Position numbers and translations under genes: made by a program. Of a stretch of DNA of 64,000 nucleotides, positions 2,789 to 37,993 are shown in pieces. This stretch comes from Planctomycetaceae bacterium UBA7805 (GTDB lineage Bacteria; Planctomycetota; Planctomycetia; Pirellulales; UBA7805). Where the stretch lies: NCBI GenBank assembly GCA_002480485.1, contig DLCF01000082.1, positions 5,330-69,329 on the forward strand. The letters are read 5' to 3'. The notes under the pieces were generated by a model. That model was not told where the DNA came from. It did no database searches and worked only from the letters and a program-made list of their open reading frames with translations. Position 1 is the stretch's first letter, and every line of letters begins with the position of its first letter.

Positions 2789-2794
2789 TTTGAT

Positions 2795-5227: not shown

Positions 5228-5283
5228 ATCCGCACCTATTTTATCCTGACGATCGATAAACGGTCAAACAACGCTGAAGTCTT

Positions 5284-8214: not shown

Positions 8215-8232
8215 ACTAACCCGTTGATTTAC

Positions 8233-10764
8233 CTAATGGTTAAATAAAAACTCACGACTACTCATAATGCCCCAGTATAAATCTTCAATCACCTCGCGCC
8301 GTTCCTCTTTGGATGCCATTTCGAGAACCGGAAGCAGTTGTTTGACCTCCGCATTGGAGGGCTGCCGAGCAAGCGTGGTCAAAAAGGCATCTCGTAGAAT
8401 CTCGTTATTTTTAAATTCTGCTTCAATAACCTTTGCAACACAACTTTTTTCATTCCGCAACCGGTCGTTGACAGTGTTGCCGTTGCTGATATGAAGCACT
8501 TGAACCAGACTCGGCGTGTTAGTCCGCTCGCATTCGCAGGTAATATTCCGTGTGTTCCGCCCGAAGGTTTTAAGAAACGGTGCCAAGACCGCCGAGTCAT
8601 AAAGCTCAATCGCCCGAGTACCCTCGGGATATTCTTTGGTTTCGACGATGCCTGAACCGTCGTATGCAATATGCGTGAAGTTTGCGGGTACTTCGGTGAC
8701 CTGAGCGATGGCATCATGCAGGACCTCCGCCATTAGGCGACGCGGATAATAGCGACTATAAAATCGCCGATCGTCCTTATTTTCCGCAATCGGAAGACTG
8801 CTACGCTGATACGTTTCCGACTGGAGAATCACGCGCATCAAGCCTTTCAAATCGTAATCATGTTCCACCAACCACGTTGCCAGCGCATCGAGTAATTCGG
8901 GATTGCTCGCTGGATTTGAAACGCGGAGATCATCGATCGGATCGACTAAGCCGACACCAAAAAAGTTTGCCCAGACCCGATTAGCGATCGCCCGACTGAA
9001 ATAGGGATTTTCCGGACTGGTTATCCAATCCGCTAATGCTAATCGACGATCTTGTGGATCATCGATCGGCAAAGGTGTTCCATCGAGCGGTGCCGGTGGT
9101 TGGGGTTTTCCCGTACGTGGCTGTACCAGATCTCCCTCCGGGGCCACATACAGGGTGCGCAGCCCATCTCCCGTGCGAGGATCGCCTCCCCAGCCCTTTC
9201 CACGTACGCGAGCGAACAGATTGGCCATCGCGTAATATTGGTCATTGGTCCACTTTTCCAAGGGGTGGTCGTGACATTTTGCACAACCGATGGAAAGTCC
9301 CAGAAAAGCCTGGCTGACATTCTCGCTCATGTCTTCGGGCGTCTGGTGGAGGGAATAAAAATTAGTTGCGCCATCCGTATAGCTATTTCCACTTGCAGTG
9401 ATGATTTTTTGAACCAGCTTATCCCAGGCAATACCATCAGCAACTTGCGATCGAATCCAATCGTAATATGCCTTCACTGCTTTGGGCCGCAGTCGTCTAC
9501 CGTTGACGAGTAATAAATCGGACCATTTGTAGGTCCAATAATCGATAAATTCTTCCCTTTCAAGCAACGACTCGATCACCGCATCGCGTCGACTCTGACT
9601 TTTCTGTAGATCCGATTCACGGTTGCCGGAATCCAAAAAATCACGGGTTTCAGCGAGACTCGGTAAAGTTCCGATGGTATCGAGGTAAGCACGCCTTAAA
9701 AATGCCGCATCCTCCGATCGGGGAGAAGGTGCAAGATTGAGGCTCTGCAGTTTATCGAGCACCAAATTGTCAATAAAATTTCTTTTGGTGGCATGTTGAT
9801 AAACGTCTGGGCTTACTTGATAAGGGTAAGGCGCTTTAATTTCTGATAAGACAATCTGACTGGAGAACCAGACAACAATTGCCCCCTGACCATGGCCGAT
9901 CACCTCGATTTTTCCGTCCGGAGAAACAGTGGCGACTGTGGCGTTGCTTGAGGAGAATTTTGCCCACTCTGTGACATCCTCCTCGCGACCATCGCTATAG
10001 CGTGCAGTGACAATTAGTTGTTGTTGATCTCCCGGTTTGAGGGTTACGACATCTGGCAAAACCTGCACCGCGGTTAATTGGGGGTCGTCAGAACCGGGAG
10101 CCTGTGCACCATCGCTAATCCATTTTCCCAAAAGTTGATAATCATCAGAGTTAATTTCAAGTCGAACGCCTCCCTTGTGGGGTACACTGCCAGTCGGTTT
10201 TGTGAGAATTAAACTACGCCCCGGATCCGCTGGTTCGACTCGTCTCCCACGGGACTGACGGGTGATCCACCAGTAGTCGCTCGCCGGATCATAGCCGCGA
10301 AGTGAGAGTTTTAAGCCGCCCTTTCCCGCCAATGCACCGTGACAAGCGCCCGAGTTGCATCCCCGCTTTGCTAAAATTGGCAGCACATGCCGGCGGAAAT
10401 CCCACGTCAATTCAGATGACGTTCCGCTTACTATGACTTTTGCCAGCGCAGATTTTCCCTTCCAGGTTCCTCGAATCGTCGCTTCACCATCACCGACCGC
10501 TTTGGCACGATTGTCCGAAACCACGACAATATTGGGATCACTTGATGTCCAGGTCACGCCGTCACGAACCTGACCTTCGAAGTTACCCGCTGGTCCGCGT
10601 CTCTCCATGATCAACTGCTGCTCTGCGCCGGGATACATCAACTCAAAGGAGGCAGGCAGGATGGCCACTTGCTCGTCCGCCAACAATGTGTTTGCACAAA
10701 GAAGCACGGGCAAAGACAACACCAGAAAAACAAAAAAGATAGATCGGAACACCATCAATCGCAC
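8233..10764 (-). CDS. Ig-like (BIG2) + DUF1549/DUF1553 protein with cytochrome-c-like motifs
   Basis: 843 aa ORF with a signal peptide and two Ig-like segments (TWTSSDPNIVVVSD..., FSSSNATVATVSPDG). Cys/His motifs are GCNSGACHG and IGCAKCHDHPLEKW. The C-terminal part is DUF1553-like. Confidence 0.8.
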   Translation of the reverse strand: MRLMVFRSIFFVFLVLSLPVLLCANTLLADEQVAILPASFELMYPGAEQQLIMERRGPAGNFEGQVRDGVTWTSSDPNIVVVSDNRAKAVGDGEATIRGTWKGKSALAKVIVSGTSSELTWDFRRHVLPILAKRGCNSGACHGALAGKGGLKLSLRGYDPASDYWWITRQSRGRRVEPADPGRSLILTKPTGSVPHKGGVRLEINSDDYQLLGKWISDGAQAPGSDDPQLTAVQVLPDVVTLKPGDQQQLIVTARYSDGREEDVTEWAKFSSSNATVATVSPDGKIEVIGHGQGAIVVWFSSQIVLSEIKAPYPYQVSPDVYQHATKRNFIDNLVLDKLQSLNLAPSPRSEDAAFLRRAYLDTIGTLPSLAETRDFLDSGNRESDLQKSQSRRDAVIESLLEREEFIDYWTYKWSDLLLVNGRRLRPKAVKAYYDWIRSQVADGIAWDKLVQKIITASGNSYTDGATNFYSLHQTPEDMSENVSQAFLGLSIGCAKCHDHPLEKWTNDQYYAMANLFARVRGKGWGGDPRTGDGLRTLYVAPEGDLVQPRTGKPQPPAPLDGTPLPIDDPQDRRLALADWITSPENPYFSRAIANRVWANFFGVGLVDPIDDLRVSNPASNPELLDALATWLVEHDYDLKGLMRVILQSETYQRSSLPIAENKDDRRFYSRYYPRRLMAEVLHDAIAQVTEVPANFTHIAYDGSGIVETKEYPEGTRAIELYDSAVLAPFLKTFGRNTRNITCECERTNTPSLVQVLHISNGNTVNDRLRNEKSCVAKVIEAEFKNNEILRDAFLTTLARQPSNAEVKQLLPVLEMASKEERREVIEDLYWGIMSSREFLFNH

Positions 10765-10781
10765 CTGTTTCCGGCCGTCAA

Positions 10782-12200
10782 TTAAAAAAGTTCTTTGATT
10801 TCGTGACGACCGAAATCAACAATCGGAAATGGTCGACCCGCCGGTCCTGGTAATTCCGTTTCCAAGTCGAATCCCATCCCGCGAAAGACGGTTCCCACAA
10901 TTTCCGGAGGGTCGGTTGGTCGATCCGCTGGAACACCACCGATAGGATCACTTTGTCCGACCACACGACCACCCTGAACACCCCCACCGGCAAAATAACA
11001 GGTGAAACATTGAGGCCAGTGATCGCGCCCACCTGCCGGATTTACTTTCGGAGTCCGCCCGAATTCAGCAACACAGGCAACCATCGTTTTATCGAGCATG
11101 CCGCGTTGATCTAAATCTTCGATCAGGGCCGAATAAGCTTGGTCGTACATGGGTGCCACGATGTTTTTCATGCCTTCGATGGAGGTAAACGGCTTCGAGC
11201 CATGGATGTCCCAAGTGATTTCATCAAACACGGTGAGAAAAGTGTTGATTGTTACGAATCGAACTCCTGCTTCAATTAATCGTCGGGCAAGTAAACAACA
11301 CTGTCCAAATCGATTACGACCGTAACGATCGCGAACTTGCGGCTTTTCTTTTGACAAATCGAAAGCCTCTTTCGCTTGTGGGCTAGTCATTAAACGATAG
11401 GCGGCCTCGAAATTGCCATCCAAAAGTTTGGCATCCGCACTCTGCTCGAAATGATCGAGGGTGGCATCAACCACGTCGCGCATTTTTTGCCGACGATTCA
11501 AACGCGCTGTTCCGATTTCGGGCGGAGGTAAGAGATCTGGCACCTGAAAATCTGGTTTTGATGGATCGGCAGATAGCACAAATGGATCGTGCGATTTACC
11601 GAGAAAACCTCCCGCCTGCCCATTTGGCAGATTCCCCCCGCCGCGCCCCATCAACTCAGGAAGTACCACGTGTGCGGGTAAATCCGTACGGCGACCACGA
11701 AGATAGTCAACCACCGATCCGACATGCGGCGTCTCTACACCACCAACAAATTTACGTCCCGTTTGCAGCATCTGCCATCCGGCATCATGAACCGCAGCCG
11801 AAGTATGGTAGCAACTGCGGACAAGTGAAAATTTATCGGCAATCTGTGCATGCTTGGGCAATATCTCAGAGAGGTGAATCTCTGGTGATGCAGTTGAAAT
11901 CGCTTTGAAAGGTCCGCGAATCTCTGCCGGGGCATCCGGCTTGGGGTCGAACGTGTCAAGTTGGCTTGGCGCACCAAGATTAAAAATCATGATTCCCGAG
12001 CGGTCATCATCCACAAGGTGTCCCTGTTCCTTGGCTTGGAGTAATCCTGGCAGGGTTAAACCTGCCGCAGCCAAGGTGCCTACCTGAAGAAAGTCACGGC
12101 GTGTCACACCGTTGCACGTGTGGGCTGAACCGGTTCCTTCAAAACGGAGCATGCGAAAATCCTTGAATTGGTTGAAAAATCGACGCGATCTTCCCAGCAC
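10782..12200 (-). CDS. DUF1501 domain protein, Tat signal
   Basis: 472 aa ORF with TRRDFLQVGTLAAAGLTLPG, GRDHW and FAGGGVQGG. It is a paralogue of 1346-2788 and sits directly downstream of the DUF1553 gene. Confidence 0.85.
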   Translation of the reverse strand: MLGRSRRFFNQFKDFRMLRFEGTGSAHTCNGVTRRDFLQVGTLAAAGLTLPGLLQAKEQGHLVDDDRSGIMIFNLGAPSQLDTFDPKPDAPAEIRGPFKAISTASPEIHLSEILPKHAQIADKFSLVRSCYHTSAAVHDAGWQMLQTGRKFVGGVETPHVGSVVDYLRGRRTDLPAHVVLPELMGRGGGNLPNGQAGGFLGKSHDPFVLSADPSKPDFQVPDLLPPPEIGTARLNRRQKMRDVVDATLDHFEQSADAKLLDGNFEAAYRLMTSPQAKEAFDLSKEKPQVRDRYGRNRFGQCCLLARRLIEAGVRFVTINTFLTVFDEITWDIHGSKPFTSIEGMKNIVAPMYDQAYSALIEDLDQRGMLDKTMVACVAEFGRTPKVNPAGGRDHWPQCFTCYFAGGGVQGGRVVGQSDPIGGVPADRPTDPPEIVGTVFRGMGFDLETELPGPAGRPFPIVDFGRHEIKELF

Positions 12201-12387: not shown

Positions 12388-14304
12388 TCATCGCGCAGAG
12401 AGTGCTTTGACGCTCTCAACGAGTAAAATTACGTTTTGCACCGGAATCTGCGGGAGTATCCCATGTCCTAGGTTGAAGATGTGTCCTGCCCGCTGCGCAG
12501 CTTTTGAAAGAATGTCGCGAGCCGCTTCCCGAATGTGATCCTCTGGTGCGAGTAAAGTCATGGGGTCAAGATTTCCCATGATCCCTCGATCTTCCCCGAT
12601 TGCGGCCCAGGCCGCATCGAGTTCGATCCGCCAATCTACACCGATCACATCGCCCCCGGCCTCAGCCAGCAGAGGATAAAGTGCGGGATTGCCCGTCGCA
12701 AAATGAATCACTGGGATTCCACCCTGTAGACCTTGAATCAGCTGACGCGTGTGTGGCAATACAAATTTTCGGTAATCATCACAGCTCAAGCAACCGACCC
12801 AACTATCAAAAATCTGCACCGCTTGCACTCCCGCAGCAATCTGTGCGTTGAGATAGAGGGTAATACTTTGCACCAATCGATCCATCAAGGATTGCCAAGC
12901 GGCAGGATTGCGATACATGAGTGTTTTCGTATGTAAAAAATTACGAGAACCACCTCCTTCGATGGTGTAGCTGGCCAAAGTAAACGGCGCCCCAGCAAAG
13001 CCGATCAATGGCATCGATTCGGCCATTTGCGCCCGCGTCTGTTGCACAGTATCCATAACGTAATGAAGTGAGTCCACACTCTCCAGAGCGAGGATACGAT
13101 TCACATCTTCTCCTTCGCGAACCGGATTATGAATGATCGGTCCCTCCCCTTGCCCGTATTCGAGCTCCAATCCCATAGGCTCCAGAATTGGCAGGAGATC
13201 TGAAAAGATAATCGCGGCATCAACGTCCAATCGCTCGGCAGCGGTTATCGCAACTTCGGCGCAGAGCGACGGATTTTTGCAGAGTTCTAAAAAACCGGTC
13301 TTTGCCCGCACTTCCCGATATTCTTTCATATAGCGTCCGGCTTGTCGCATCAGCCAGATGGGTGTTCTTGGAACTGGTTCCCTACGACACGCACGAAGAA
13401 AAATACTCTGCTGCCAGGCAGGTTCCCGCTGCTGCTCGGTAACCGCTGTAAGTTGCGACGAGAGAAATTTTGAGAGCTTTTCTTTTTGTGCTTTTACGTC
13501 CGGCGCGCATCGGGTCGCAAGCGCGACAAGTTGACCCATTTTATGTGTATCCGATTCGAGATCGACCGTAATGCGACGTTCTCGTAAAAAATGACTTGTG
13601 GTCGGTCCAATCGAGGCCACCACTACGCTCTGCAAGGCTTCGTGAAGTGCATCAAGTAGACCTTGCTGTTGAGCGAGCGCAAGTAAATTATTAGCTTGGT
13701 TAGCTGACGTAAACAAAGCAACGTCGATTTTTCGATCAAGTATCGCACAAATATTTTCATTGAGTGGTGTTGTATCTATCGGTAGTTCCCAACGGTAGAT
13801 TTGCACTGGAATTACCGTGGCCCCTCGGGCCTCGAGGCCTGCGATGAGGCTCGGGTTCGTGATCCCATATTCTTGCACCCCGACATGAAGTCCTGCCAGA
13901 GGCACATATCGGTCGACCAATTGTAAAATCTCCCGCCATGTGTAAGGCGAATCCGCCTGAAAGGATGGCTTGACCCCCAACCGTCTGAGCGCAGCCACAG
14001 GTTTGGGTCCACGGGCGATGGTTTTCGTATCTGCCAAGGCGGTTAAAAAACGCTCTCGCTTGATATGCCGCTCGACAACCTGCGTTAATGTTTCGACCCC
14101 CACCCCAGTGAGCAGAATCACAACGTCAATCTCCGCGGTGATTAAGCGATGGGCAAAGTCAATTGCCTGCTTATTCTCCTCGATTGGAACCTCGCGCATA
14201 GAAGGACTAACGTGGGGAGTCCCCCCGTGCCGTTCAATGAGCCGCGCCATTTCCTCACCACGCCGGCTCTCAAAGGCAGCTATATGCAATCCAACAGTAG
14301 ACAT
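12388..14304 (-). CDS. hemE: Fusion protein: uroporphyrinogen-III synthase (HemD-like, about aa 1-265) + uroporphyrinogen decarboxylase (HemE, about aa 298-638)
   Basis: 638 aa single ORF. The C-terminal half carries the HemE signature PIWLMRQAGRYMKEYR plus FDSW and GHGI. The N-terminal half has the two-lobed HemD pattern (ILLTGVGV..., ALFTSANQANN..., ASIGPTTS). Confidence 0.8.
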   Translation of the reverse strand: MSTVGLHIAAFESRRGEEMARLIERHGGTPHVSPSMREVPIEENKQAIDFAHRLITAEIDVVILLTGVGVETLTQVVERHIKRERFLTALADTKTIARGPKPVAALRRLGVKPSFQADSPYTWREILQLVDRYVPLAGLHVGVQEYGITNPSLIAGLEARGATVIPVQIYRWELPIDTTPLNENICAILDRKIDVALFTSANQANNLLALAQQQGLLDALHEALQSVVVASIGPTTSHFLRERRITVDLESDTHKMGQLVALATRCAPDVKAQKEKLSKFLSSQLTAVTEQQREPAWQQSIFLRACRREPVPRTPIWLMRQAGRYMKEYREVRAKTGFLELCKNPSLCAEVAITAAERLDVDAAIIFSDLLPILEPMGLELEYGQGEGPIIHNPVREGEDVNRILALESVDSLHYVMDTVQQTRAQMAESMPLIGFAGAPFTLASYTIEGGGSRNFLHTKTLMYRNPAAWQSLMDRLVQSITLYLNAQIAAGVQAVQIFDSWVGCLSCDDYRKFVLPHTRQLIQGLQGGIPVIHFATGNPALYPLLAEAGGDVIGVDWRIELDAAWAAIGEDRGIMGNLDPMTLLAPEDHIREAARDILSKAAQRAGHIFNLGHGILPQIPVQNVILLVESVKALSAR

Positions 14305-22701: not shown

Positions 22702-23829
22702 TCAGTTGTTCAACGTAATTTTCTCAATACGAGTTTCTAACTCTTTGCGAATTTGCTCCGCGCAGCGTTGATATTCCGCTACCGACTCTCCGATAGGGTC
22801 GGCTACATCTTTCCCATCAAGACGTAGAACTTCTGTTCGAGACGCCGCTTCCGGCCACTGAGATAATAATGCTTCACGATGTCCACGGGTCATCGTCAGA
22901 ATCAGGTCGGCATGACGTACCATTTGCTCAGAAACAGGCTGCGCAGAATGACTTGTCAGGTCGAGATCAATTTTTTTCATCACTTCAATTCCCTGAGGTG
23001 AAGCCTGGCCACCGGCCATTGCTGCGATTCCGGCAGAGGTGATCACCACGCCGTGCTCATCAACTTCGTTGTCATTGCAACCTATTTTTTTTGCAAGAAG
23101 ATTTCTTCCTATCACTTCGCCCATCGGGCTGCGACACGTATTGCCTGTGCATATGATCAAGATCATGACACTTGATAGCCGCTTGAGATGCTGTTCAGTA
23201 ACGACTCCCGCCCTCAAAATGTCATAGCTTGTTTCATGAACTCTAACTACAGATGAGGGTTGACCGAGTCGACTTTTGCCGCCATCAAGTACCAAGTCAA
23301 TTTGGTCACCAAATGCAGACACAACCTCTTCGGCAGTGATTGCCTCTGGCTCACCGGTCTGATTCGCGCTGGTCAAAGCAACCGGCCCGGTCAACATCCG
23401 CAACACATCTAAAATCAGAGGGTGTGCAGGAACCCGGAGCCCTACGGTTCCATTCGGAACAACAGCCTGTTTCACTTTCGTCGGGAGCTGCGCGAGTAGG
23501 CTTTCTGGGTGGTTGTTCTCTGCAACGAGAGTGATGGGTCCAGGCCAACAACGTCGAGAAAGACGACGACCCATCGGGCTTAAATCAGGCGCATAGTCAA
23601 GCGCCTCCTCGGCACTACGTACGGCTAGAGTGAATGGGTGGCCTTGGCCGCGGCCTTTTGCATCAATCAGTCGATCGACGGCACCCTCATCCAGCGCGCT
23701 GGCGGCTAAACCATATACGGTTTCGGTAGGAAACGCGACCAAGCGTCCACCTGCTAGCGCTTCCACTGCTCGATGTACCACATCGCGCGGATCTTGGGTT
23801 GCCCGGGTATCTATGACCACTGGATTCAT
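22702..23829 (-). CDS. Fusion: L-threonylcarbamoyladenylate synthase domain (TsaC/YrdC/YwlC-like, aa 1-210) + low-molecular-weight phosphatase (YwlE-like, aa 221-375)
   Basis: The N-terminal part has YrdC motifs (VAFPTETVYGLAA, LTSANQTGEP). The C-terminal part has the P-loop ILIICTGNTCRSPMGE and the DP general-acid motif VADPIG. Confidence 0.85.
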   Translation of the reverse strand: MNPVVIDTRATQDPRDVVHRAVEALAGGRLVAFPTETVYGLAASALDEGAVDRLIDAKGRGQGHPFTLAVRSAEEALDYAPDLSPMGRRLSRRCWPGPITLVAENNHPESLLAQLPTKVKQAVVPNGTVGLRVPAHPLILDVLRMLTGPVALTSANQTGEPEAITAEEVVSAFGDQIDLVLDGGKSRLGQPSSVVRVHETSYDILRAGVVTEQHLKRLSSVMILIICTGNTCRSPMGEVIGRNLLAKKIGCNDNEVDEHGVVITSAGIAAMAGGQASPQGIEVMKKIDLDLTSHSAQPVSEQMVRHADLILTMTRGHREALLSQWPEAASRTEVLRLDGKDVADPIGESVAEYQRCAEQIRKELETRIEKITLNN

Positions 23830-26087: not shown

Positions 26088-27305
26088 TCAATCTAGCCAG
26101 TCTCCATCCGCCAATCGGTCAGGCACATATTGCTCAGTCACGTAGCTAATGTCTTTGCTGATGAGTGCTTCGACCTCAAGCTTGAAGTCGTTTTTCAGCA
26201 TTAAATTAATCTCCTTTTGCCACGCTTTTTTATGTTCGAACCAGGGATAACCCATAATTTGTCGCGCGCGTTTACGATCATTTTCATTGAGGTCGATCCG
26301 TACACTCGGTGATAGCCCGCAACGCTCATAGTCTTTGCTACGCAAACCAATAAATCTTGCTTTGGGTATCGCCATGCGCTGAGACTCATAGGCGAGATTA
26401 ATTGAACCTTGCTTAATAACGCTGTAGATGTAATATCCCCACGGATCATTATCGAGTAAGCAGAAGATAGGAAGATTTAATTCGTTATGCATGCGATTGA
26501 GTAGCCGCCGAACGCCCCGCGGAGGCTGCCCGGCACCATGCGTTAGAATACAGTTATGTTTTTTCCAGAATTTATCCTCGTTGAATCTCTGCCAAACTGT
26601 ACCTTTCTCCACATGCAGCACGAATTTAGCAGTGCACTTTTTGAAGTTGATCACATTTGGCTCAACGATGGACGGAATACCATATCCCCCCGATCCCATC
26701 CGCGCACAATCGATTAAATCACCGTTATCCTCCAGCGTCAGGTTACCTACCATTTCCCCGCGCTTATCTGCATAGAGATGCAACTCCTCGCGCAGACTTC
26801 CCAGCAGCACCTCAACATCTTCAATCACCGGATCACACTCAGACTGCTCTTCGAAGGTATTCTCCTTAGTACCGTCGATGGTGTGCTTCAGCATGTAGTA
26901 GAGACCACGAATACTCGTATTTTTTCCCTGCTCAATCAACTGTTTGCAACCACTTCCGACAAGCATCGTCTGCATATAACTCTTTGCTTGGGAGAGATTA
27001 AACAACAACCGACGGTTCGTATTTTTTCCCATCTCAATGAAGCGTTTTCGTCGGTTAAACTTCACGTTTGAGAGACTGCGCGTCGGAATATCCAGGTGCG
27101 GGTCCCGTTTTCGCCGCGCAGCGAGCACTACCTGATCAGCCATCGAAACCAGCTCACCCAAAGTTTTGCGATCTTTTGTTGATACCCGCGCCTTGGGTCG
27201 CTTTACTTTTGAGGATCCGGCCACCACTTTCTTGCTTGGCGCACTATTTGACGCCTTTTTCACCTTGGAATTCTTGGACCTGGTCTTCACCGGTTTCTTT
27301 GCCAT
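26088..27305 (-). CDS. top6A: DNA topoisomerase VI subunit A (Spo11/Top6A family)
   Basis: 405 aa ORF. It has the 5Y-CAP region SIRGLYYMLKH, the Toprim Glu in FVLHVEKGTVWQRF and the DxD in CLLDNDPWGYYIY. The ATG start precedes a Lys-rich N-terminal 45 aa. Confidence 0.88.
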   Translation of the reverse strand: MAKKPVKTRSKNSKVKKASNSAPSKKVVAGSSKVKRPKARVSTKDRKTLGELVSMADQVVLAARRKRDPHLDIPTRSLSNVKFNRRKRFIEMGKNTNRRLLFNLSQAKSYMQTMLVGSGCKQLIEQGKNTSIRGLYYMLKHTIDGTKENTFEEQSECDPVIEDVEVLLGSLREELHLYADKRGEMVGNLTLEDNGDLIDCARMGSGGYGIPSIVEPNVINFKKCTAKFVLHVEKGTVWQRFNEDKFWKKHNCILTHGAGQPPRGVRRLLNRMHNELNLPIFCLLDNDPWGYYIYSVIKQGSINLAYESQRMAIPKARFIGLRSKDYERCGLSPSVRIDLNENDRKRARQIMGYPWFEHKKAWQKEINLMLKNDFKLEVEALISKDISYVTEQYVPDRLADGDWLD

Positions 27306-27354
27306 CCGCTATTTCTCTCTAAACGAGGAATTTGTGATCCGAATAATACAGAAT

Positions 27355-29508
27355 TCATTTTGCCGACAACTGGTCAGCAACCTGGTTGGGATCAACAATC
27401 AACACATTTTTTCCCAGGTCAAGCTCTTCCTCGACGGGCCGCCCGCGACTGTCGAGCTTGACATCCGCTTCCGCGGTCTTTTTGGTTGCTATTTTTAAGA
27501 GTTGGTCATACAGATCCTGCCGATTGGCACGATTGATTTCACTCACCGCGCTCGCTACTTCACCCAAATAGCGAAGAAATATATTTCGACGTTCACCCTC
27601 CTGGCGAACACGAATACGGCGACGAAGGTACATGCCCAATTTTCGGCCGACCGCCTGGAGCCCCAATCGCAATTCTTTCTGAATTTCAGGATAGGACGCG
27701 ACCGCTTCTTTCGATTCACTGGTAAAAGGCACCCAGACACTTGCCATGTGAATCATTACTGTTACCGGACCACTGGGCAGAGACCCACGTGATTGACTCA
27801 GGCCATATGGTCTCCAATTCGTGTTCAAAATACTTTGCGTAATCGCACAAGCAGCCGGTTGAAACTGCAGTGGAACGCGATTGGCATACCGCAAGACGTT
27901 CATGGTTTGTCCTTCACCGATGTTTACATTGCGCATCGCGTCATGCAACGCGTCGATTTGTTTCCCGGCGATTTTCCCAGGTGAAAGTCGATTTCCCAGG
28001 TCCGCTTCTTTGAGAATGCGTTCGGACGCCTCGGAACCGATTCCATCGAATGTGTGAATTAAAAATTGTCTCAGGGTTCGCAAATCAGTTTCCGTAAGTA
28101 GCTCATTTAGGGTTTCCCTCGTGATCCGCTGCGCGGCAGTCGTACCACCATAAGCGAGGGCAACTTCAATCTGGAATGGATTTCCCCGGTAAACATTCGG
28201 CGGCCGCGTGGCCGCGGCATAAAATTCACCGGGAACCACCTGGTGCAATCCTTTCAACAGAAGCTCTTCTCCGATGGGAGCAATACAATCAGTTTTCGGC
28301 GCACTGATTTTTGTTCCCTGAATTGCTTCATACAGACGGTCAACTTCACCACGCCCGATTTTTCTTGTGCTCGACCGCACTTTGAGTCCGGCTGCGGCGC
28401 ATATTTTTTTTGCAACCGCAGGGCTGACCCGAGAAAACGAAGACGTTAAAAATTGCGAGAGCGTTCCGGCGTCTGTCGCTTTCAACAGCGCAAGTAATCT
28501 TCCTAATTCAACGCCGTAGGGATGCGGCTTGATTTCTTTCGGTTCATCAGGAAGCGTCTCCGTAGAGCGTTTATAGTGATGAGAACCGCCGTCAGGATCG
28601 AGATAGTGTAGTGTTACGTGAGGATTTGCAATTGCGGTTTGTTCAAGATATTCATCGACACTTCCTCGACCACGTTGATATTTAGCCTCGAGTTCGATTG
28701 TGACCCTTGTTCCACTTACAACTTCTTTTGCTGTAGTGTCTTCAGGATCATCGCCGGATCGGCTGACCCACTCGACACCATGCTTGGTCATCCATGTTTC
28801 TCCTTTTGGTCCGGCTGGAATATCCGCGCCGTTTCCTCGCCCATTAAGGATTTCCGGTTTATTATTTTTTGTGTCGATTTGAATTTCGTAATAATGAATT
28901 GGTTTCCGCTTGGAGGTTTTTGATGAAATTTTAACCGGCTTACCAGTCGTAAGAACTCCGTACATTCCAGCGGCACTGATGCCGATACCCTGCTGGCCAC
29001 GACTCATCCGCAGGCGATGAAATTTAGATCCGTACAGCAGCTTTCCGAAAATAAGCGGAATCTGCTTTTTGAGTATTCCCGGGCCATTATCTTGCACACC
29101 GGCTTTGTAACGGTTGTTGCCAGTCGCTTCGACGTGAACCCAGATTTCCGGTAAGATTCCCGCCTCCTCACAGGCGTCTAGTGAATTGTCCACCGCTTCC
29201 TTGATGGTGGTCAGGAGGGCTTTCCGGGGGTTGTCGAATCCCAACAGATGCCGATTTTTTGCGAAAAATTCACTGACCGAAATGTCTCGCTGACTGGCTG
29301 CCATCGATTGCGCCGTGGCGCGTCGTGACGATCGTTTACGGGCGGACGCTCCATTGGTGTTACTGCTGGCTGCAGATGCCGACCCGTTGTTCGATGAGGT
29401 CTTACGTTTTTTCTTTCGAACAGCGCCATTGGTGGCGACCCGAGAAGTTGAAGCGCTATTTTTTTTTCTTTTTGCCTTCACTTTTGCCAAGCGCCTGTCT
29501 CCTCGCAA
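27355..29508 (-). CDS. top6B: DNA topoisomerase VI subunit B (GHKL ATPase)
   Basis: SVSEFFAKNRHLLGFDNPRKALLTTIKEAVDNSLDA is the Bergerat-fold N-box region. GxxGxG-like SRGQQGIGISAAG follows. The longest ORF starts at TTG 29508. An alternative ATG at 29304 would give an archaeal-length N-terminus. Confidence 0.85.
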   Translation of the reverse strand: MRGDRRLAKVKAKRKKNSASTSRVATNGAVRKKKRKTSSNNGSASAASSNTNGASARKRSSRRATAQSMAASQRDISVSEFFAKNRHLLGFDNPRKALLTTIKEAVDNSLDACEEAGILPEIWVHVEATGNNRYKAGVQDNGPGILKKQIPLIFGKLLYGSKFHRLRMSRGQQGIGISAAGMYGVLTTGKPVKISSKTSKRKPIHYYEIQIDTKNNKPEILNGRGNGADIPAGPKGETWMTKHGVEWVSRSGDDPEDTTAKEVVSGTRVTIELEAKYQRGRGSVDEYLEQTAIANPHVTLHYLDPDGGSHHYKRSTETLPDEPKEIKPHPYGVELGRLLALLKATDAGTLSQFLTSSFSRVSPAVAKKICAAAGLKVRSSTRKIGRGEVDRLYEAIQGTKISAPKTDCIAPIGEELLLKGLHQVVPGEFYAAATRPPNVYRGNPFQIEVALAYGGTTAAQRITRETLNELLTETDLRTLRQFLIHTFDGIGSEASERILKEADLGNRLSPGKIAGKQIDALHDAMRNVNIGEGQTMNVLRYANRVPLQFQPAACAITQSILNTNWRPYGLSQSRGSLPSGPVTVMIHMASVWVPFTSESKEAVASYPEIQKELRLGLQAVGRKLGMYLRRRIRVRQEGERRNIFLRYLGEVASAVSEINRANRQDLYDQLLKIATKKTAEADVKLDSRGRPVEEELDLGKNVLIVDPNQVADQLSAK

Positions 29509-30736: not shown

Positions 30737-33286
30737 CTATTGCCTTTCGGCTTCAGTCTCAGTGCATGTGGCCAATAACGTTTCGAAACGTTCTCGCCAA
30801 AGATCACCCCCTAGTTCGGGATAGAGCACTTGCGTGGTTCGGATTGTCTGCGCGGCCATCCTCACGTTGCCAAGCAGCATTCGCGCCTTGGCTTCTCCAT
30901 ATTTAGCGGCGAACCACTGTTCGGTTTGCGGACGGGAGCGCCTAGTGATCTCTCGATATTTACTTAGTGCTTCTCGTCGAGATGTGGCGTCACTTTGCTC
31001 AAGAAGTAAATCCGCGTACCGTGATTGAATTTTCCCGTCTCCCGAATATTCAGCCGCCAATTTACGGAGCAGAGTCAAAGCCTCTTTCGTCTTACCAAGC
31101 AGGGCAAGCGTTTCGGCTTGTATTAACGTCAGTTGCTTTTTCTCGGGATATGCAGAAAAATCACCCAGAATTTGAAAACACGCCATATTGATCTTTGCCC
31201 GTGTATCAAACGTTTGGTTTGGATCATTTTGGTTACCATTCCGAACCTTAATCTTATGTATATTCAATATCAGATTAATGATGTCTTGAGTGTCACCCGT
31301 GAATGCCTTAAGTACATCAAGCGCTTGCCCGAAACGTCCCAATCCCACCAAGCATTCCACCTGAAGTGCATGAAGCCGCGCATGATTTTTCCGATCATCC
31401 TGAGCAATACTCCCCAGTCCCTGCTTGATCAGTTCGAGTACACCACGATATGGAATCGGTGAATAGTGCATCTGCAGTGCCGCGGCGTCGGCGACCACCG
31501 AGGCCGCCATCGGGCTGCCGGCATTGATAAGCCTCTCGGCGGCATCGCGCATGGATTGAGTCAATGCAGTTGACCGTTTGCTCAACTGGGGATCATTTTT
31601 TTCTGCTAAATCGGCACAATTTCTGAGGCAGCATGTTCCCGCAATTCGGATTGCCTCCGGGTAGACCAAACTACTCGGATCGATTTCAAATAGAATTTCA
31701 CTTGCAGAAGACCATTTTTTTTCGGCGGCTAGCATGCGGCCTAACCAGAGTCGTGCTCGATTCGAAGAGTTATCCGTGGGCCATCGTCGAAGGTGATCCC
31801 TCAATAACTCTTGGTATGGTGAAAACGCTTCCGGTGGACTCCCTTTCAAAGCTTGAGCAATATTGTAAGCGGCCATTAGATGCGCTTCTGCGGCGCCTGA
31901 TTCTTGGGGATAGGTGATCGCGATGCGCCTCAATTTTTTACTTGCCGCCCGATAGTTTTGAATTTCGTATTGGATCATTGCGGATTTAAGGTAAAGCTCA
32001 AACGCTTTCGCGAGGTCTTTTTGATTGTCCGCCTTTCTCGCCGCTTCATCATAGATTCTAGCGGACTCGGTAAATTGTCCTGCTTGATAAAGCCCCTCCG
32101 CGGCCCTCTCTAACAACGCATATCCATGTTGCGATGGGTCAATAGTCATTTGACGTCCGAAGAGTGCTCGTGCTCGCTGCAACCAATACGGATCGTGGAG
32201 ATTCTCAATCAACTCAAGTTGACTTTCAGCACGCGCGTTCCAGTTTTTGGTGTTTTCTATTTTCTCGTTACTAGCAGCTTGAAGCATGACTTGCAGTTCA
32301 CAGAAATCAACTTCCGCCTCCACCTCTGGGCTGTAATTCACCGGTTGATTCAATGCCTTGAGTGCGTCGAGATAACGCCCACTTGCACTGAATTGTCTGG
32401 CCAATTCCAGGCAAATTTGACCTCGCACATCGACCGGTAGATTTTCTGATAGATAGGAGTCTTTCAGTTGCTGAAAAAGATTTTGATCTTTTTTACCTCC
32501 AAGTAATCTTAGACAGGCTAATCGCGAAACTCGGCTATCCCAATCGATGGGGTCATTTTTTGCAGCGAGAGGGGAAAGGATCTCCTTGGCTTGTTGCAGG
32601 GCATGGATGCGATCAGAGCTCCCTGCTTGATAACAGCGTGCCTGCTCCATCCAGCTCTGGGATAAATCTTTTTCTGCCGCCGTTTGGAGACGAAGCAAAG
32701 CACTGTTCGGTAACCGGTTTTCCACAGAAGAGTGCAGAGCCTTATTAATTTTTTTAAGAGTCTTTTCAGCAGTCTTTTGAGCATGCTGCAAATACCGAAT
32801 TGACTCTTTTCTCTTTGGCTTCGGATCCAAGACCCCCGCACTGAGCTGCCGGATGAATTTTCCACGTAGTAGCGCAACGTGTGCGCGTTGCCTCCATACC
32901 ATTGGGTCCAAAACGTTCTCTGGATTATCTTCAAGCCAACGCTCTAAAACATTTTCAGCTTGTTTCCAATGTGCGACACTGGATTGTGGGGAGCATTGCC
33001 TTGCCCAAGCGGTATAGGCACGTGATAAATCCACCACCGTATTAACGCGTGATATGGGATCGAGGGTGTTGACCGCGAGACGTTCCTCGCAAGCTAAAAC
33101 TGCTAGGGGGAAAAGTCGTCTATCCAAGAGTCCGTCGATGAACTTCTCTTCGGCCGCCTGTTGATCTTCCGTTACTAGGGCAGGGCAGTCATTCGGCAGA
33201 ACAGCAACCGACCCCACTGCGATAAACGTGGTGAGCAATCCGATATAGGCGGTGTGCAACGGGGATCTGCTGAATTTTAACGGCAT
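30737..33286 (-). CDS. Large TPR-repeat protein (secreted or periplasmic)
   Basis: All-helical, with repeated A/L/Y TPR-like 34-mers throughout. The start is refined to the ATG at 33284-33286 (MPLKFSRSPLHTAYIGLLTTFIAVGSVAV), which removes the overlap with exbD. The ORF track's maximum is 33457. Confidence 0.7.
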   Translation of the reverse strand: MPLKFSRSPLHTAYIGLLTTFIAVGSVAVLPNDCPALVTEDQQAAEEKFIDGLLDRRLFPLAVLACEERLAVNTLDPISRVNTVVDLSRAYTAWARQCSPQSSVAHWKQAENVLERWLEDNPENVLDPMVWRQRAHVALLRGKFIRQLSAGVLDPKPKRKESIRYLQHAQKTAEKTLKKINKALHSSVENRLPNSALLRLQTAAEKDLSQSWMEQARCYQAGSSDRIHALQQAKEILSPLAAKNDPIDWDSRVSRLACLRLLGGKKDQNLFQQLKDSYLSENLPVDVRGQICLELARQFSASGRYLDALKALNQPVNYSPEVEAEVDFCELQVMLQAASNEKIENTKNWNARAESQLELIENLHDPYWLQRARALFGRQMTIDPSQHGYALLERAAEGLYQAGQFTESARIYDEAARKADNQKDLAKAFELYLKSAMIQYEIQNYRAASKKLRRIAITYPQESGAAEAHLMAAYNIAQALKGSPPEAFSPYQELLRDHLRRWPTDNSSNRARLWLGRMLAAEKKWSSASEILFEIDPSSLVYPEAIRIAGTCCLRNCADLAEKNDPQLSKRSTALTQSMRDAAERLINAGSPMAASVVADAAALQMHYSPIPYRGVLELIKQGLGSIAQDDRKNHARLHALQVECLVGLGRFGQALDVLKAFTGDTQDIINLILNIHKIKVRNGNQNDPNQTFDTRAKINMACFQILGDFSAYPEKKQLTLIQAETLALLGKTKEALTLLRKLAAEYSGDGKIQSRYADLLLEQSDATSRREALSKYREITRRSRPQTEQWFAAKYGEAKARMLLGNVRMAAQTIRTTQVLYPELGGDLWRERFETLLATCTETEAERQ

Positions 33287-33350
33287 AGATTGAAGCGCCT
33301 CTATTTTGATGCTAAGTGTTTTATGGGCATCAACCACAATTCCCATCTTA

Positions 33351-34321: not shown

Positions 34322-35140
34322 TTACGTTTGCGTTGGTGGCGGATTTGAAGCACTCGTACTCGCAGCTTGCTTTCGTTGATTGCGTCGACGTTTCAGTGGC
34401 AAAAACACCTGTTGTGCCAAGTGCGATCCGTCCGCAACCAATTGATCAATGTGATTGCGAAAGATTGCGAATGCGGCCAGGGCGGGAATCGCCACTAACA
34501 GCCCTCCGACGGTGGTAACAAGTGCCTGATAAATTCCGGTGGCAAGATCTGCAGCCCGCGCGCTGCCTTCTGTGCTTGCCACTTCCTGGAAGGCAAAGAT
34601 CATTCCAAAAACTGTACCCAACAGCCCGACCATCGGCGCAATATTCGCAATCACCGACAAATATTCTATTTTTCTCAGCAGCTTGGCCGCCTGTTCTGCC
34701 GTCGCATCCTCCATGGCTTTTTCAACTGCACTCCATCCACTTTCGGCCTCTGTGATTCCTGCCTGCAACACAACGCTCAAGAAGCTCGGTTTCGCTTTGC
34801 ACGCGGCATTTGCTCCACTCACATCACCTGCCACAAGACACCGTTGCACGTCTCCGGCAAGTCCTGTCGGAAGAAGAATATTTCGCCGGAGAGATAATAA
34901 GTGCTCGATAATGAGGGCTACAAGGCTGATAGAAAGACCAAGCAGTAGCATGACAATCAGAAATCCGGTTACACCGCCTGAAAAAACGATCTCAAAAAAT
35001 CCATCCTGCCCCCGCATCGCTTCGGCCTCTCTGTCAGATGTGCTATCAGCGGCGATTGCGTTCGTCCATAACACTAGATGAAGTGAGGCGGCAAAGAGAA
35101 ACCGCCCTCCAGTCATAAAAACGTCATGCATAATTATCAT
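34322..35140 (-). CDS. exbB: MotA/TolQ/ExbB proton-channel family protein with an N-terminal signal peptide and extension
   Basis: The C-terminal MotA_ExbB core reads LSVIANIAPMVGLLGTVFGMIFAF...ATGIYQALVTTVGGLLVAIPA. 272 aa. Confidence 0.85.
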   Translation of the reverse strand: MIIMHDVFMTGGRFLFAASLHLVLWTNAIAADSTSDREAEAMRGQDGFFEIVFSGGVTGFLIVMLLLGLSISLVALIIEHLLSLRRNILLPTGLAGDVQRCLVAGDVSGANAACKAKPSFLSVVLQAGITEAESGWSAVEKAMEDATAEQAAKLLRKIEYLSVIANIAPMVGLLGTVFGMIFAFQEVASTEGSARAADLATGIYQALVTTVGGLLVAIPALAAFAIFRNHIDQLVADGSHLAQQVFLPLKRRRNQRKQAASTSASNPPPTQT

Positions 35141-35150
35141 TTTAGGGCAC

Positions 35151-36302
35151 TTAGTCGAGGTCTTCTTTTCTTTGCTTGGCCTCGGCCGCTGCCGTGCTTT
35201 GAGGATAAGTGTTGATCAGTTCGGTATAAATTTTTTTTGCCTCGGTTGGAAGGCGAGCTTCAACGCTTACTTTCCAAGCCGTGAGTAATGCCTCGGCGGC
35301 AAGGTTTGGGTTAGCATCATCAAGAATTGCCACGCGCATCGCAGCGACCGCGGCCTTACGATTCTCTCCGGTGCGCTCGTAAAGCCTGCTCAAAATATAA
35401 TAGGGCCCCCCCTGTAGCGACAGGGGAAGTTGTTCGACTGTTTTGCGACATAGCTCAATCTTATCCGCCGAGGCATATGGTAACTGCGTGCGCAACCATT
35501 GAGCCCTGGCGAGTGCATTGAGGGGTGGTATTGCTGTCTCGGCTAAGTTGAGAAGTACGCGTTCGGCCTGTTGTGATTTTCGAGTTCCCAGGAGCAGACT
35601 ACTTCCAAGAAGTTGGGCTATCGGCCTTGCTAGATCCTCCATCCACGCCACGGCAGTCGCTTCCGCTTGGGGAGATGGAGTGAATCCCCCGGCCCAGATC
35701 AATGGAATGCAATGCATATATGGAGTTCCCGGATCTTTGTGGAATAATTGTAGAAATGCCTTGCTCGCTTGAAAGTGTTTCCCGTCCGCTCGTAGTGCCA
35801 GAACCAACTCCGAACGGATTTCACATTGCACCCAATTGCGATCTTCGGCCCCACTTTCCAGAAGGCGGTAATAGTTGCTTGCAGCTTTTTCAAACTGCCC
35901 CGCTTTGGTTGCCAGCCGTGCCGCCCGCTGCGCGGGTGTACGCTGAGAGTCAATGCGTATCACCTGCTCGGCGGGAATCACCCGTTTTTGCCCACTTGTC
36001 AACATGATCGTCAAACCTTGGCCGTTGAAATCAACGATTGTTCCTTTCAACTGTCGCACCTGCTGCTGCCGGTAGTGCACCGTATCGCTCGCTACGATAT
36101 CTGCCGATGCAAAACCACCAAAGTGGCCGATTACAAAAGCCATTATCAGCAGGTACATAATCCATTTGATCGTCGGCCTGCATCGGTGGAATGTATACCA
36201 GATGATAATAAGTATCACTCCAAAAAAATTAGTCTGCTGCATTGGTTGGGCTGAGTCGATCGGTATTAAAGAATAGATATTCGCCTCCATTCTCTCTTGC
36301 AA
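35151..36302 (-). CDS. Membrane-anchored or secreted helical-repeat (TPR-like) protein
   Basis: 383 aa maximal ORF that overlaps the vWA gene end. Likely starts are ATG 36242 or ATG 36158 (MYLLIMAFVIGHFGGFASA). The C-terminal two thirds are helical and TPR-like. Confidence 0.6.
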   Translation of the reverse strand: MQERMEANIYSLIPIDSAQPMQQTNFFGVILIIIWYTFHRCRPTIKWIMYLLIMAFVIGHFGGFASADIVASDTVHYRQQQVRQLKGTIVDFNGQGLTIMLTSGQKRVIPAEQVIRIDSQRTPAQRAARLATKAGQFEKAASNYYRLLESGAEDRNWVQCEIRSELVLALRADGKHFQASKAFLQLFHKDPGTPYMHCIPLIWAGGFTPSPQAEATAVAWMEDLARPIAQLLGSSLLLGTRKSQQAERVLLNLAETAIPPLNALARAQWLRTQLPYASADKIELCRKTVEQLPLSLQGGPYYILSRLYERTGENRKAAVAAMRVAILDDANPNLAAEALLTAWKVSVEARLPTEAKKIYTELINTYPQSTAAAEAKQRKEDLD

Positions 36303-37221
36303 TTTTCTTTAGCCAATTATCTCCCACTTCGACATCGCTGCCGAATTGAATGACGTTGATTGTCGCGCGCCCTTTATTTCGCCGTCGTATGCGCGCAAGG
36401 TCTGAATTACTGAGGCTTGGTTCAGTTCCGTCGGTAAGAAAAAAAATACAATCGCCATTGAGCGCGATGGCTTTCAATAATGGATCCAAATGACGAGTTG
36501 CCCCATTGGCAGCAATTTTCCGCAGGTACTCATCGGCCGCTGATTTATTTTTTTCACTCGCAAAAAAGAGTTTTCCGGAAAAGTTTTTATCCTGTGAGGG
36601 ATGAAAAATGTCTAAAAATTCGTTGTAGAAAATAATTTCAAATTGGTTCAATTTTCCAAGATCCTGAAGGCTATTTGTGATCTCACGCTTGGCCGCCTCC
36701 AGGGGACGACCCTCCATGCTTCCGGATCGATCAAAGAGATAAACGAATTTATTTCCGACACCGGTGACGCCGAATACTCCTGTTCTCACCTTTCCACCGT
36801 CGATATTTCTGAGACCATCCCCCTTTCCTTCCAATCCCAGTCGACCTCCGCTATCGTTGTTGGCCACAGCAGGGCCGACACCCGCCGCGGGGTCCGGTAG
36901 AAAGGCGCTGGTGTCCAACGGGGATTCTCCCGCTCCAGGCAGTGCGGCAAAACTGTTCCCGCTCTCGGTGGCACTCGCCATATCGGTAGCTACCGAGATC
37001 TCGGAGTCTTCACCTTCGTAGTATTCCCCTTGCGATGTGACCCGCTTCAGCACAATTCCGGTTGTCCGATCCGGTTCGGTAACCACACCTGGGGGTATAG
37101 AACGAATTCCAATCACTAACAGGATCAAGAGCAAGCCATGAAAGACCATGGATGTAAACCACGCTGGCAGCATGTGTCGGAGTGCCTTCCGGTCGTCCGA
37201 AAGGGGACGCTGATTATGCAT
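36229..37221 (-). CDS. vWA-domain protein with a TonB-like N-terminal signal anchor
   Basis: ATG start. The single TM is LPAWFTSMVFHGLLLILLVIG (S24-x3-H28-G). A disordered linker of about 120 aa rich in P/G/A/S/E follows. The vWA domain has the MIDAS motif VYLFDRSGSMEG (D164-x-S-x-S). Confidence 0.75.
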   Translation of the reverse strand: MHNQRPLSDDRKALRHMLPAWFTSMVFHGLLLILLVIGIRSIPPGVVTEPDRTTGIVLKRVTSQGEYYEGEDSEISVATDMASATESGNSFAALPGAGESPLDTSAFLPDPAAGVGPAVANNDSGGRLGLEGKGDGLRNIDGGKVRTGVFGVTGVGNKFVYLFDRSGSMEGRPLEAAKREITNSLQDLGKLNQFEIIFYNEFLDIFHPSQDKNFSGKLFFASEKNKSAADEYLRKIAANGATRHLDPLLKAIALNGDCIFFLTDGTEPSLSNSDLARIRRRNKGRATINVIQFGSDVEVGDNWLKKIARENGGEYLFFNTDRLSPTNAAD

Positions 37222-37348
37222 GGGATCTGACGTTCGATAAAAATGGGGCGTGAAAAAAAAGATTCACAGGGATATACTTGTTCGGTTCGATAGTTTACCC
37301 GATGTTATCGAGCACGGCACGATTAATCCCGTGAATGCATGTGTAAAC

Positions 37349-37993
37349 ATGCATGATGTGGTGAAAATCATTGCACCAACGCAGGTGACTGCTTTCGCGA
37401 GGTATGATCCGGTGGAAATCATCAAATATCCCCATCCAACGCTTCGATACCAGAGCAAACCGCTCAAGCGGATTGACGCTGCGCTTCGAGAAACAATCAC
37501 CGAAATGTTTCAATTAATGTACGAAGCACAGGGCATCGGCCTCGCTGCTAATCAGGTCGATTTACCCTACCGATTATTCGTATTGAATATTCATGAAGAG
37601 CGGTCAAAAGAGCATGAGATGGTTTTTATAAATCCAGTGATATCCAAACCTAAGGATCCAGATGAAAAAGAAGAAGGATGTTTAAGTCTGCCCGGTGTGT
37701 ATGCTCCGGTTCGACGCCCAGCATCGATTCATCTAACGGCCTTGAATTTATCGGGTGAAACCATTGAGGGCGACTTCGGCGGACTTCTGGCGCGCGCAAT
37801 CCAACACGAAACGGATCACTTAGACGGTATACTATTTATCGACCGTTTAGCCGATCTTGTACAAAAACAACTGCAGGATGAGTTGGATCAGTTTCAGAAA
37901 ACACATGATGCAAATCGATCGCAAAATGTCATTCCACCGGATGAAATCATATTTGATCGACTTGCCGCAATGGAATCTGCCTATTGTGTGTAG
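37349..37993 (+). CDS. def: Peptide deformylase
   Basis: GIGLAANQV, EGCLSLPG and HETDHLDG motifs are present. The ORF track's GTG at 37250 would add about 33 non-conserved residues, so the ATG at 37349 is preferred. The start remains uncertain. Confidence 0.88.
   Translation: MHDVVKIIAPTQVTAFARYDPVEIIKYPHPTLRYQSKPLKRIDAALRETITEMFQLMYEAQGIGLAANQVDLPYRLFVLNIHEERSKEHEMVFINPVISKPKDPDEKEEGCLSLPGVYAPVRRPASIHLTALNLSGETIEGDFGGLLARAIQHETDHLDGILFIDRLADLVQKQLQDELDQFQKTHDANRSQNVIPPDEIIFDRLAAMESAYCV

Follow-up and report, generated by a model that had tools for sequence, protein, structure and literature searches.

The characterised systems closest to the gene described here are the periplasmic force transducers TonB and TolA of Escherichia coli. 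TonB is anchored with its N-terminus inside (N-in) by a helix that carries Ser-x3-His, followed by hydrophobic residues and a Leu at i+11. A short hydrophobic strand (the D-box) lies 13-18 residues past the helix, a long linker spans the periplasm, and the motor is of the ExbB/ExbD type. TolA has an anchor of the same SHLS type (S18/H22) and a D-box-like strand, SIDAVMVD. Cryo-electron microscopy shows TonB S16/H20 in contact with ExbB S34/W38, which are linked to P190 (PMC12215075), in agreement with what a first-pass annotation of our sequence had stated about the Ser-x3-His face of TonB. The D-box is captured by the ExbD dimer through beta-strand addition, and an ExbD mutation that abolishes this binding also abolishes transport (Loll et al., PMC10907165). 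Here we report on a gene for a membrane-anchored vWA protein that shares this arrangement, its strand being a candidate, and that heads a six-gene cluster with motor genes. It lies in a 64,000-nucleotide stretch of contig DLCF01000082.1 (Planctomycetaceae bacterium UBA7805, assembly GCA_002480485.1), referred to below, at its full length, as the window. We consider it probable that the protein is a force transducer of the TonB/TolA type whose C-terminal domain has been replaced by a metal-dependent vWA adhesion domain.

Transducers that end in a vWA domain are not a new idea. A purely sequence-based study, 'Origin and Evolution of Bacterial Periplasmic Force Transducers' (Mol Biol Evol 2025, PMC12204202), proposed them as a class tethered to the inner membrane, in which an SHLS helix is followed by a predicted motor box, then by a domain II of ~100 residues and by vWA as the C-terminal domain. 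The phyla given for it are Proteobacteria, Planctomycetes, Verrucomicrobia, Bacteroidetes and Rhodothermaeota, the Planctomycetes belonging to the PVC bacteria in which the class is reported. The seeds of the class are two Tichowtungia aerotolerans paralogues of 474-476 residues, in an AlphaFold 3 (AF3) complex model a conserved His falls on the motor site of TonB/TolA, and no phenotypes are reported for these proteins (PMC12204202). Our literature search found no further paper on such vWA proteins; a stress transcriptome paper on R. baltica names exbB, exbD and a 327-residue vWA protein, and gives no link among them. Because the idea has already been published, the value of the present work lies in a detailed, quantified description of a planctomycete subfamily. 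The new points are the conservation of Ser and His, the 0.5% background frequency of the motif, the 76% synteny with motor genes, the intact metal-ion-dependent adhesion site (MIDAS), the missing motor Trp, the fusion of two tetratricopeptide repeat (TPR) proteins, and a sub-clade whose loci lack adjacent motor genes.

Coupling between a motor and a vWA protein is also known from the Agl-Glt gliding machinery of Myxococcus, in which a TolQR-type motor is functionally coupled to the vWA adhesin CglB. CglB is a separate outer-membrane lipoprotein, joined to the motor by TonB-like proteins, whereas in the planctomycete protein the vWA domain is fused directly to the putative motor-docking anchor. 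A membrane-tethered vWA domain next to a tolQ-like gene is likewise found in the TPH-vWA class (PMC12204202). Proteins of that class differ in lacking SHLS and in having an ExbD-like pore helix with Asp, and they replace TolR/ExbD; we rejected membership for our protein, in whose helix Ser and His are present and Asp is not, and whose cluster contains two ExbD genes. Pal is reported absent from Planctomycetes (supplement, PMC12204202), and TonB as well as TonB-dependent receptors have been found in only four of the planctomycete genomes examined (Speth et al. 2012). The motors of these bacteria therefore lack a canonical transducer.

Anchor, linker and vWA domain

The interval singled out by the first-pass annotation, 37060-37221 (-), encodes residues 1-54 of the vWA-protein open reading frame (ORF; 36229-37221). 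The N-terminus reads MHNQRPLSDDRKALRHMLPAWFTSMVFHGLLLILLVIG in translation, and Ser24-Met-Val-Phe-His28 was called correctly, 37138-37152 (-) translating to SMVFH. Arg and Lys residues lie upstream of the transmembrane (TM) helix, and the family consensus has RR directly before P-A-W-L-x-S. An AlphaFold 2 (AF2) monomer, computed from a 51-sequence alignment with a mean predicted local distance difference test score (pLDDT) of 79, consists of a helix at residues 20-40 (pLDDT ~93), disorder at 41-143 (~40-65) and a compact alpha/beta domain at 144-330 (>90). The model and the flanking Arg/Lys residues indicate a single N-terminal TM helix with N-in topology, as in TonB/TolA-type transducers.

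A search of 5.8 billion proteins returned 237 homologues, and all sources named to organism belong to Planctomycetota. Conservation was counted in a MAFFT alignment of 116 homologues (35-99% identity). Ser24 is present in 111/112 sequences and His28 in 115/115, so that the i/i+4 pair, whose invariance had been proposed as a check, is conserved almost without exception; the other counts are 103/109 for Trp21, 85/109 for Pro19 and 82/116 for Leu35, at i+11. When 36 N-terminal modules were aligned separately, no column other than Ser and His was invariant. The helix contains S-x3-H in 80 of the 83 locus-encoded orthologues, those from loci without adjacent motor genes included, and the three others look like truncation or motif-search artefacts. 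The Gly that had been read as part of the motif does not belong to it: the Gly29 column is mostly A, T, M or F, and Gly is a minority.

Outside the family the motif is rare. The background set was drawn from ~1.4 Mb of planctomycete sequence (the orthologous loci and the window) and comprised 1,138 long ORFs that do not overlap, with the vWA family excluded. S-x3-H occurs in 6 of its 1,216 TM-like segments (0.5%), and two of these six are the third helix of ExbB. A chance origin of the motif is rejected because it is conserved in orthologues and rare in this background, where a frequency typical of unrelated planctomycete anchors had been named as the result that would count against it.

The E. 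coli TonB anchor that had been used for comparison, Ser16-x3-His20-Gly, matches PDB chain 9ddo_F exactly, with zero mismatches over TonB residues 1-70. TolA has the same S-x3-H motif, IIISAVLHV (PDB 9k49_H), and this equal likeness is a caveat to any reading in terms of TonB specifically. The family anchor was compared by hhalign with 11 TonB/TolA anchors, namely those of E. coli TonB and TolA and nine from diverse phyla (SI 1 of PMC12204202). The alignment spans 26 columns and places Ser on Ser and His on His, with a score of 25.6 (P=4.7e-5). The highest score among 120 full column shuffles was 13.5, the reversed alignment scored 10.0, and the N-termini of the ExbB, ExbD1 and ExbD2 families scored 10.3-11.8 as controls; shuffles within the helix (n=200) had a median of 14.9, and 3 of them reached 25.6. 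The profile-profile comparison suggested at first pass thus gave a match in register. At the level of sequence the resemblance is specific but short, and points to a shared design; common descent is not proven.

The linker that follows the helix had been likened to that of TonB, which holds for its position and length and fails for its Pro content. Residues 41-143 contain 16.5% Gly, 10.7% Ala, 9.7% Ser and 7.8% Pro, and acidic residues are also abundant. Across the family, the linker has a median length of 103 residues and a median Pro content of 8.7% (maximum 14.9%), compared with 27% in E. coli TonB residues 34-70. No match to TonB_C (PF03544 / TIGR01352) was found in the vWA protein with Pfam and NCBIfam at E<=0.1. 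Lacking both a TonB_C domain and a Pro-rich spacer, the protein falls outside the TonB family.

Two blocks alone are conserved inside the linker, at residues 49-59 and 66-71. In the first, G55 (99/116), I56 (104/116), V57 (97/116) and L58 (101/116) are conserved at 84-90%. This GIVL part, at 37045-37059 and just past the interval of the first-pass annotation, lies 15-19 residues past the helix, where TonB has its D-box QPISVTMVTP and TolA has SIDAVMVD. Among the loci without adjacent motor genes, a sub-clade with the helix LPWLLSSTLH has G-I-S-L-E-A in place of GIVLK, closer still to the alternating pattern. We regard GIVL as a candidate for binding by the ExbD pair. The second block, E-Y-[Y/F]-[E/D]-G-E, begins seven residues past the GIVL block and may form a hairpin's second strand or serve the MIDAS as an acidic ligand from within the protein.

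The C-terminal domain had been called vWA at first pass, a call borne out by the AF2 model, by Foldseek and by the MIDAS residues; the Pfam vWA matches of the protein itself are sub-threshold. Foldseek matches the domain model to inter-alpha-inhibitor heavy chain 1 (ITIH1, E=2e-13) and the Catenulispora vWA protein 4fx5 at E=2e-13 to 1e-11, and further to calcium-channel alpha2-delta, CLCA1, CMG2 and integrin I domains. The MIDAS sequence DRSGS is confirmed by translation at 36718-36732 (-), and D164, S166, S168, T242 and D264 are invariant in 51 sequences.

Gene cluster and motor proteins

The six genes lie on one strand in the order vWA, small TPR, TolQ/ExbB-like, ExbD, ExbD, large TPR, with gaps of -14 to +50 nt. 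No second TonB/TolA-like anchor was seen among the genes of the cluster. Orthologues of both TPR proteins have signal peptides at their N-termini, from which the small TPR protein is probably periplasmic. Upstream, and divergent from the vWA gene, are def, fmt, a MiaB-like gene and glnE.

Synteny was sampled by a scan of one genome per species, at least 540 relatives in all, and the best 80 loci were used. The labels of 79 of them are Planctomycetota or its families and genera (Pirellulales, Pirellulaceae, Planctomycetaceae, Thermoguttaceae, Blastopirellula marina DSM 3645). Locus L081 (JABMRB010000987.1) is labelled Candidatus Nealsonbacteria; it has the def-vWA arrangement and a protein 40% identical to the query, and because of this same arrangement it is probably a planctomycete contig that was mis-binned. 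The informative loci, 66 in number, are those with 4 kb or more downstream of the vWA gene. Genes for ExbB and ExbD follow on the same strand in 50 of the 66 (76%), and the full set is present in 47.

The motor proteins score closest to models from the Tol-Pal system. The motor subunit scores 80 bits with the NCBIfam TolQ model and 50 bits with the ExbB model, both below cut-off, TolR models are favoured over ExbD models for the ExbD/TolR pair, and both TPR proteins match YbgF/CpoB weakly, all far below the equivalog cut-offs. The cluster differs from Tol-Pal in having no TolA domain III, TolB or Pal. Both ExbD paralogues have the essential TM Asp in 40/40 orthologues. The motor subunit was aligned in 58 sequences (the window and 57 orthologues) with E. 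coli ExbB and TolQ, the references being verified against PDB 5sv0_B and 8odt_A. The equivalents of E. coli ExbB Thr148 and Thr181 (pore ring), TM1 Ser34, which touches TonB His20 in the cryo-electron microscopy structure (PMC12215075), and TM3 Pro190 are invariant (58/58); the equivalent of Glu176 is mostly Gln and that of Asn196 is Ala.

Compared with E. coli TonB, the vWA protein thus ends in a different domain, its motor partner has no counterpart of Trp38, and its cluster contains two distinct ExbD paralogues and no TonB-dependent receptor nearby. With the published vWA class (PMC12204202) the family shares a TM helix with S-x3-H and the key His, a candidate motor box, the linker of ~100 residues, the vWA end and the motor neighbourhood. 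It differs from the Tichowtungia seeds, in which the MIDAS is degenerate (D-A-D/N-K, LCSG) and the proteins are paired, whereas the planctomycete family has an invariant DxSxS, T and D and a single vWA copy per cluster. This copy is the first gene, an order that departs from the published description, and the cluster is closed by the TPR protein of ~850 residues. An hhalign comparison of the family with the seeds, whose sequences were read by optical character recognition, was marginal (probability 46%, P=2e-4, 120 columns of the vWA domain).

A putative force transducer and alternative explanations

As far as sequence analysis reaches, the family is best placed in the vWA force-transducer class, as a planctomycete member with an intact MIDAS and a TonB/TolA-like motor-docking module. 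In the mechanism that we propose, a proton-driven motor would be built from the TolQ/ExbB-like protein, probably in pentameric form, together with the two ExbD/TolR paralogues as a heterodimer. The N-in helix would dock on the outside of this motor through its Ser24/His28 face, contacting the TM1 Ser that is linked to the TM3 Pro; we judge such docking to be likely. The periplasmic domains of the ExbD pair would take up the G-I-V-L strand, ~15 residues past the membrane, by beta-strand addition, as happens with the TonB D-box. The disordered linker, ~100 residues long, would then relay motor action to the vWA domain, whose MIDAS site may grip a partner in the outer membrane, cell wall or periplasm by an acidic residue of that partner, probably with participation of the two secreted TPR proteins. 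Docking, capture of the D-box, transmission of force and what the ligand is are alike our inference. The proposal follows the first-pass annotation, which had described a TonB-like protein with its receptor-binding domain swapped for vWA; motif invariance and rarity, the hhalign register and the operon support that description, membership of the TonB family apart.

The first alternative, which we hold to be improbable, is a periplasmic vWA adhesin or scaffold of the ordinary signal-anchored kind, whose gene happens to be co-transcribed with those of the motor. Ser and His would then be kept for some other reason, for instance self-association of the helix or a polar contact with the TPR proteins, and the output of the motor would lie elsewhere. 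Three observations speak for such a protein: no sequence homology to TonB/TolA was found beyond the short motif, the motor lacks Trp38, and 16 of the 66 loci have no adjacent motor genes. These three and the points that follow weigh against a transducer. The hhalign probability is just 68% and rests largely on Ser and His inside a hydrophobic helix. The i+15 Ser, the fourth residue of SHLS, is absent, position 39 being I, W, V or L and never mainly Ser; in Ton proteins the Leu and Ser of SHLS are poorly conserved (Celia et al., PMC12215075). An HMMER profile of the N-terminal module found nothing relevant among all PDB sequences and Pfam, the matches being a chance PsbJ (E=0.7) and scattered TM families. 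The same profile found 472 matches among 1.84 billion representatives, all of them the vWA family and its fragments, with no bridge to TonB. The best 150 of the 472 are of family length or shorter, and ten matches of 224-289 residues, a size typical of TonB, have no TonB_C; these short matches look like truncated family members because three of them show partial vWA matches. The GIVL block is left unaligned to the D-box by hhalign, and no strand is predicted there by the AF2 monomer, which folds neither this block nor the EYY motif, as expected if a partner is required.

The details on the motor and the synteny are these. The equivalent of Trp38, the ExbB residue that TonB Ser16/His20 contact in E. 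coli, is A, V or L in 58/58 motor subunits, so that the motor lacks part of the canonical contact network. A near-invariant Trp21 is found on the transducer helix, three residues before Ser24 and on the same helical face, and from these sequences it is possible that the motor-transducer interface has been re-wired by a relocated Trp. Furthermore, 16 of the 66 loci have no adjacent ExbB gene, and 15 of those have no ExbD gene either. The motor-less loci include L002/L055, L024, L059, L067, L069, L071-L073, L032, L047, L049 and L077. The Ser-His helix is present in 9 of the 10 that were checked (the exception is L049), and at least one TPR gene is kept in 12 of the 16. At L059 (10970-14461) and L069 (7059-10544) the two TPR proteins are fused in one ORF of ~1,160 residues, with the small TPR part at residues 36-342 and the large part at 363-1159; the vWA gene is present at both loci, without adjacent ExbB/ExbD. 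As a Rosetta-stone hint, the fusion suggests that both TPR proteins cooperate. Retention of TPR genes at motor-less loci, together with the fusion at two of them, argues that the vWA and TPR proteins form a functional core.

Four observations stand against the adhesin or scaffold. The operon offers no other TonB/TolA-like anchor, the TPR proteins carrying cleavable signal peptides; the motif is in the TonB/TolA register and rare elsewhere; a second conserved block occurs at the D-box position; and the published AF3 model of related proteins puts the His at the TonB site (PMC12204202). On this balance we prefer the force transducer.

A second alternative, also rather unlikely in our view, accepts that the vWA protein docks on the motor and makes it a static tether or regulator that would hold the motor at the wall or outer membrane in the manner of the peptidoglycan-binding domain of MotB, the TPR proteins being the parts that move. 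The linker would suit this role, as it is flexible and Gly/Ser-rich and has no stiff polyproline rod, and vWA domains are commonly stable adhesion modules; conservation in the cluster is moreover no lower for the two TPR proteins than for the vWA protein, and two genomes carry them as a fusion. It conflicts with the finding that an S-x3-H anchor with a D-box-like strand marks a transducer, and not a stator anchor, in all characterised systems (PMC12215075, PMC10907165), and stator-type periplasmic domains are already provided by the ExbD/TolR proteins.

Finally, BatA-E aerotolerance operons resemble the cluster in combining vWA and TPR proteins, but a Bat-type or MoxR-associated vWA system with ExbBD genes as unrelated neighbours is most improbable and was rejected, since the vWA and TPR genes have the motor genes interleaved among them in an order kept in 50/66 loci and no gene for a MoxR AAA+ ATPase or DUF58 protein was found in the cluster or flanks of the window and three related loci.

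If the vWA protein is a force transducer, it would be a third type of arm, ending in a metal-dependent adhesion domain, and would widen what such motors can do. The family is present in hundreds of planctomycete species, beside housekeeping genes. Its occurrence in so many species, these neighbours, the reported absence of Pal and the rarity of canonical TonB therefore make it a good candidate for an important envelope function. A more far-reaching proposal, which is possible and which we put forward tentatively, is that the six-gene cluster could be the main proton-driven envelope machine of Planctomycetia, because Pal is reported absent from this class and most genomes examined have neither canonical TonB nor its receptors. 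With a re-wired motor-transducer interface, it would take a Tol-Pal-like part by keeping hold of, or constricting, the outer membrane in FtsZ-less division, or else it would drive macromolecule uptake. Clear targets for mutation are offered by Ser, His, GIVL and the MIDAS, all of them conserved.

Features and other genes of the window

The features of the vWA gene and its cluster are listed in Table 1.

Table 1. Positions in the window of the vWA gene, of the parts of its product and of the other genes of the cluster.
Feature	Position	Strand	Evidence
Membrane-anchored vWA protein, putative force transducer, 330 aa, ATG start	36229..37221	-	ORF listing; first gene of cluster
TM helix, aa 20-40, AWFTSMVFHGLLLILLVIGIR, N-in	37102..37164	-	AF2 helix, pLDDT ~93; translation
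Ser24-x3-His28, S-H part of the TonB/TolA SHLS motif	37138..37152	-	Conservation, rarity, hhalign register
Disordered linker, aa 41-143	36793..37101	-	Low AF2 pLDDT; composition
E-P-x-R-x-x-G-I-V-L-[K/V], aa 49-59, candidate D-box/motor-box strand	37045..37077	-	Alignment; translation
E66-Y67-[Y/F]68, then [E/D]-G-E	37018..37026	-	E 83/116, Y 98/116, Y/F 100/116
C-terminal vWA domain, aa 144-330, complete MIDAS	36232..36792	-	pLDDT >90; Foldseek
Small TPR-like protein, ~360 aa, start uncertain	35151..36242	-	Weak TPR and YbgF matches; conserved position
TolQ/ExbB-like motor subunit, 272 aa, signal peptide and N-terminal extension	34322..35140	-	MotA_ExbB (PF01618) E=3e-27
ExbD/TolR paralogue 1, 146 aa	33860..34300	-	PF02472 E=3e-21
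ExbD/TolR paralogue 2, 152 aa	33351..33809	-	PF02472 E=2e-16
Large TPR protein, ~850 aa, start uncertain (M38 or M58 of ORF)	30737..33346	-	TPR_19, TPR_14, weak YbgF; conserved last gene

The peptide deformylase ORF at 37250-37993 (+) has 247 residues when read from GTG, its Pfam domain begins at residue 56, and orthologues have ~192 residues. The true start is probably further downstream, which would enlarge the divergent promoter region that separates def from the vWA gene.

Several other genes of the window are of separate interest. Topoisomerase VI, which is typical of archaea and eukaryotes and uncommon in bacteria, is encoded by adjacent genes for subunits A (Spo11/Toprim) and B at 26088-29508 (-). 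Two ORFs are fusions: one of 375 residues at 22702-23829 (-) joins Sua5/YrdC to a low-molecular-weight phosphotyrosine phosphatase, and one of 638 residues at 12388-14304 (-) joins HemD (uroporphyrinogen-III synthase) to HemE (uroporphyrinogen decarboxylase). The region 1346-12200 (-) holds two planctomycete-specific gene pairs (DUF1501 and PSD1/PSCyt2) around a WD40 protein of 976 residues; one of the pairs has a PSCyt1 cytochrome c domain and the other Big_2.

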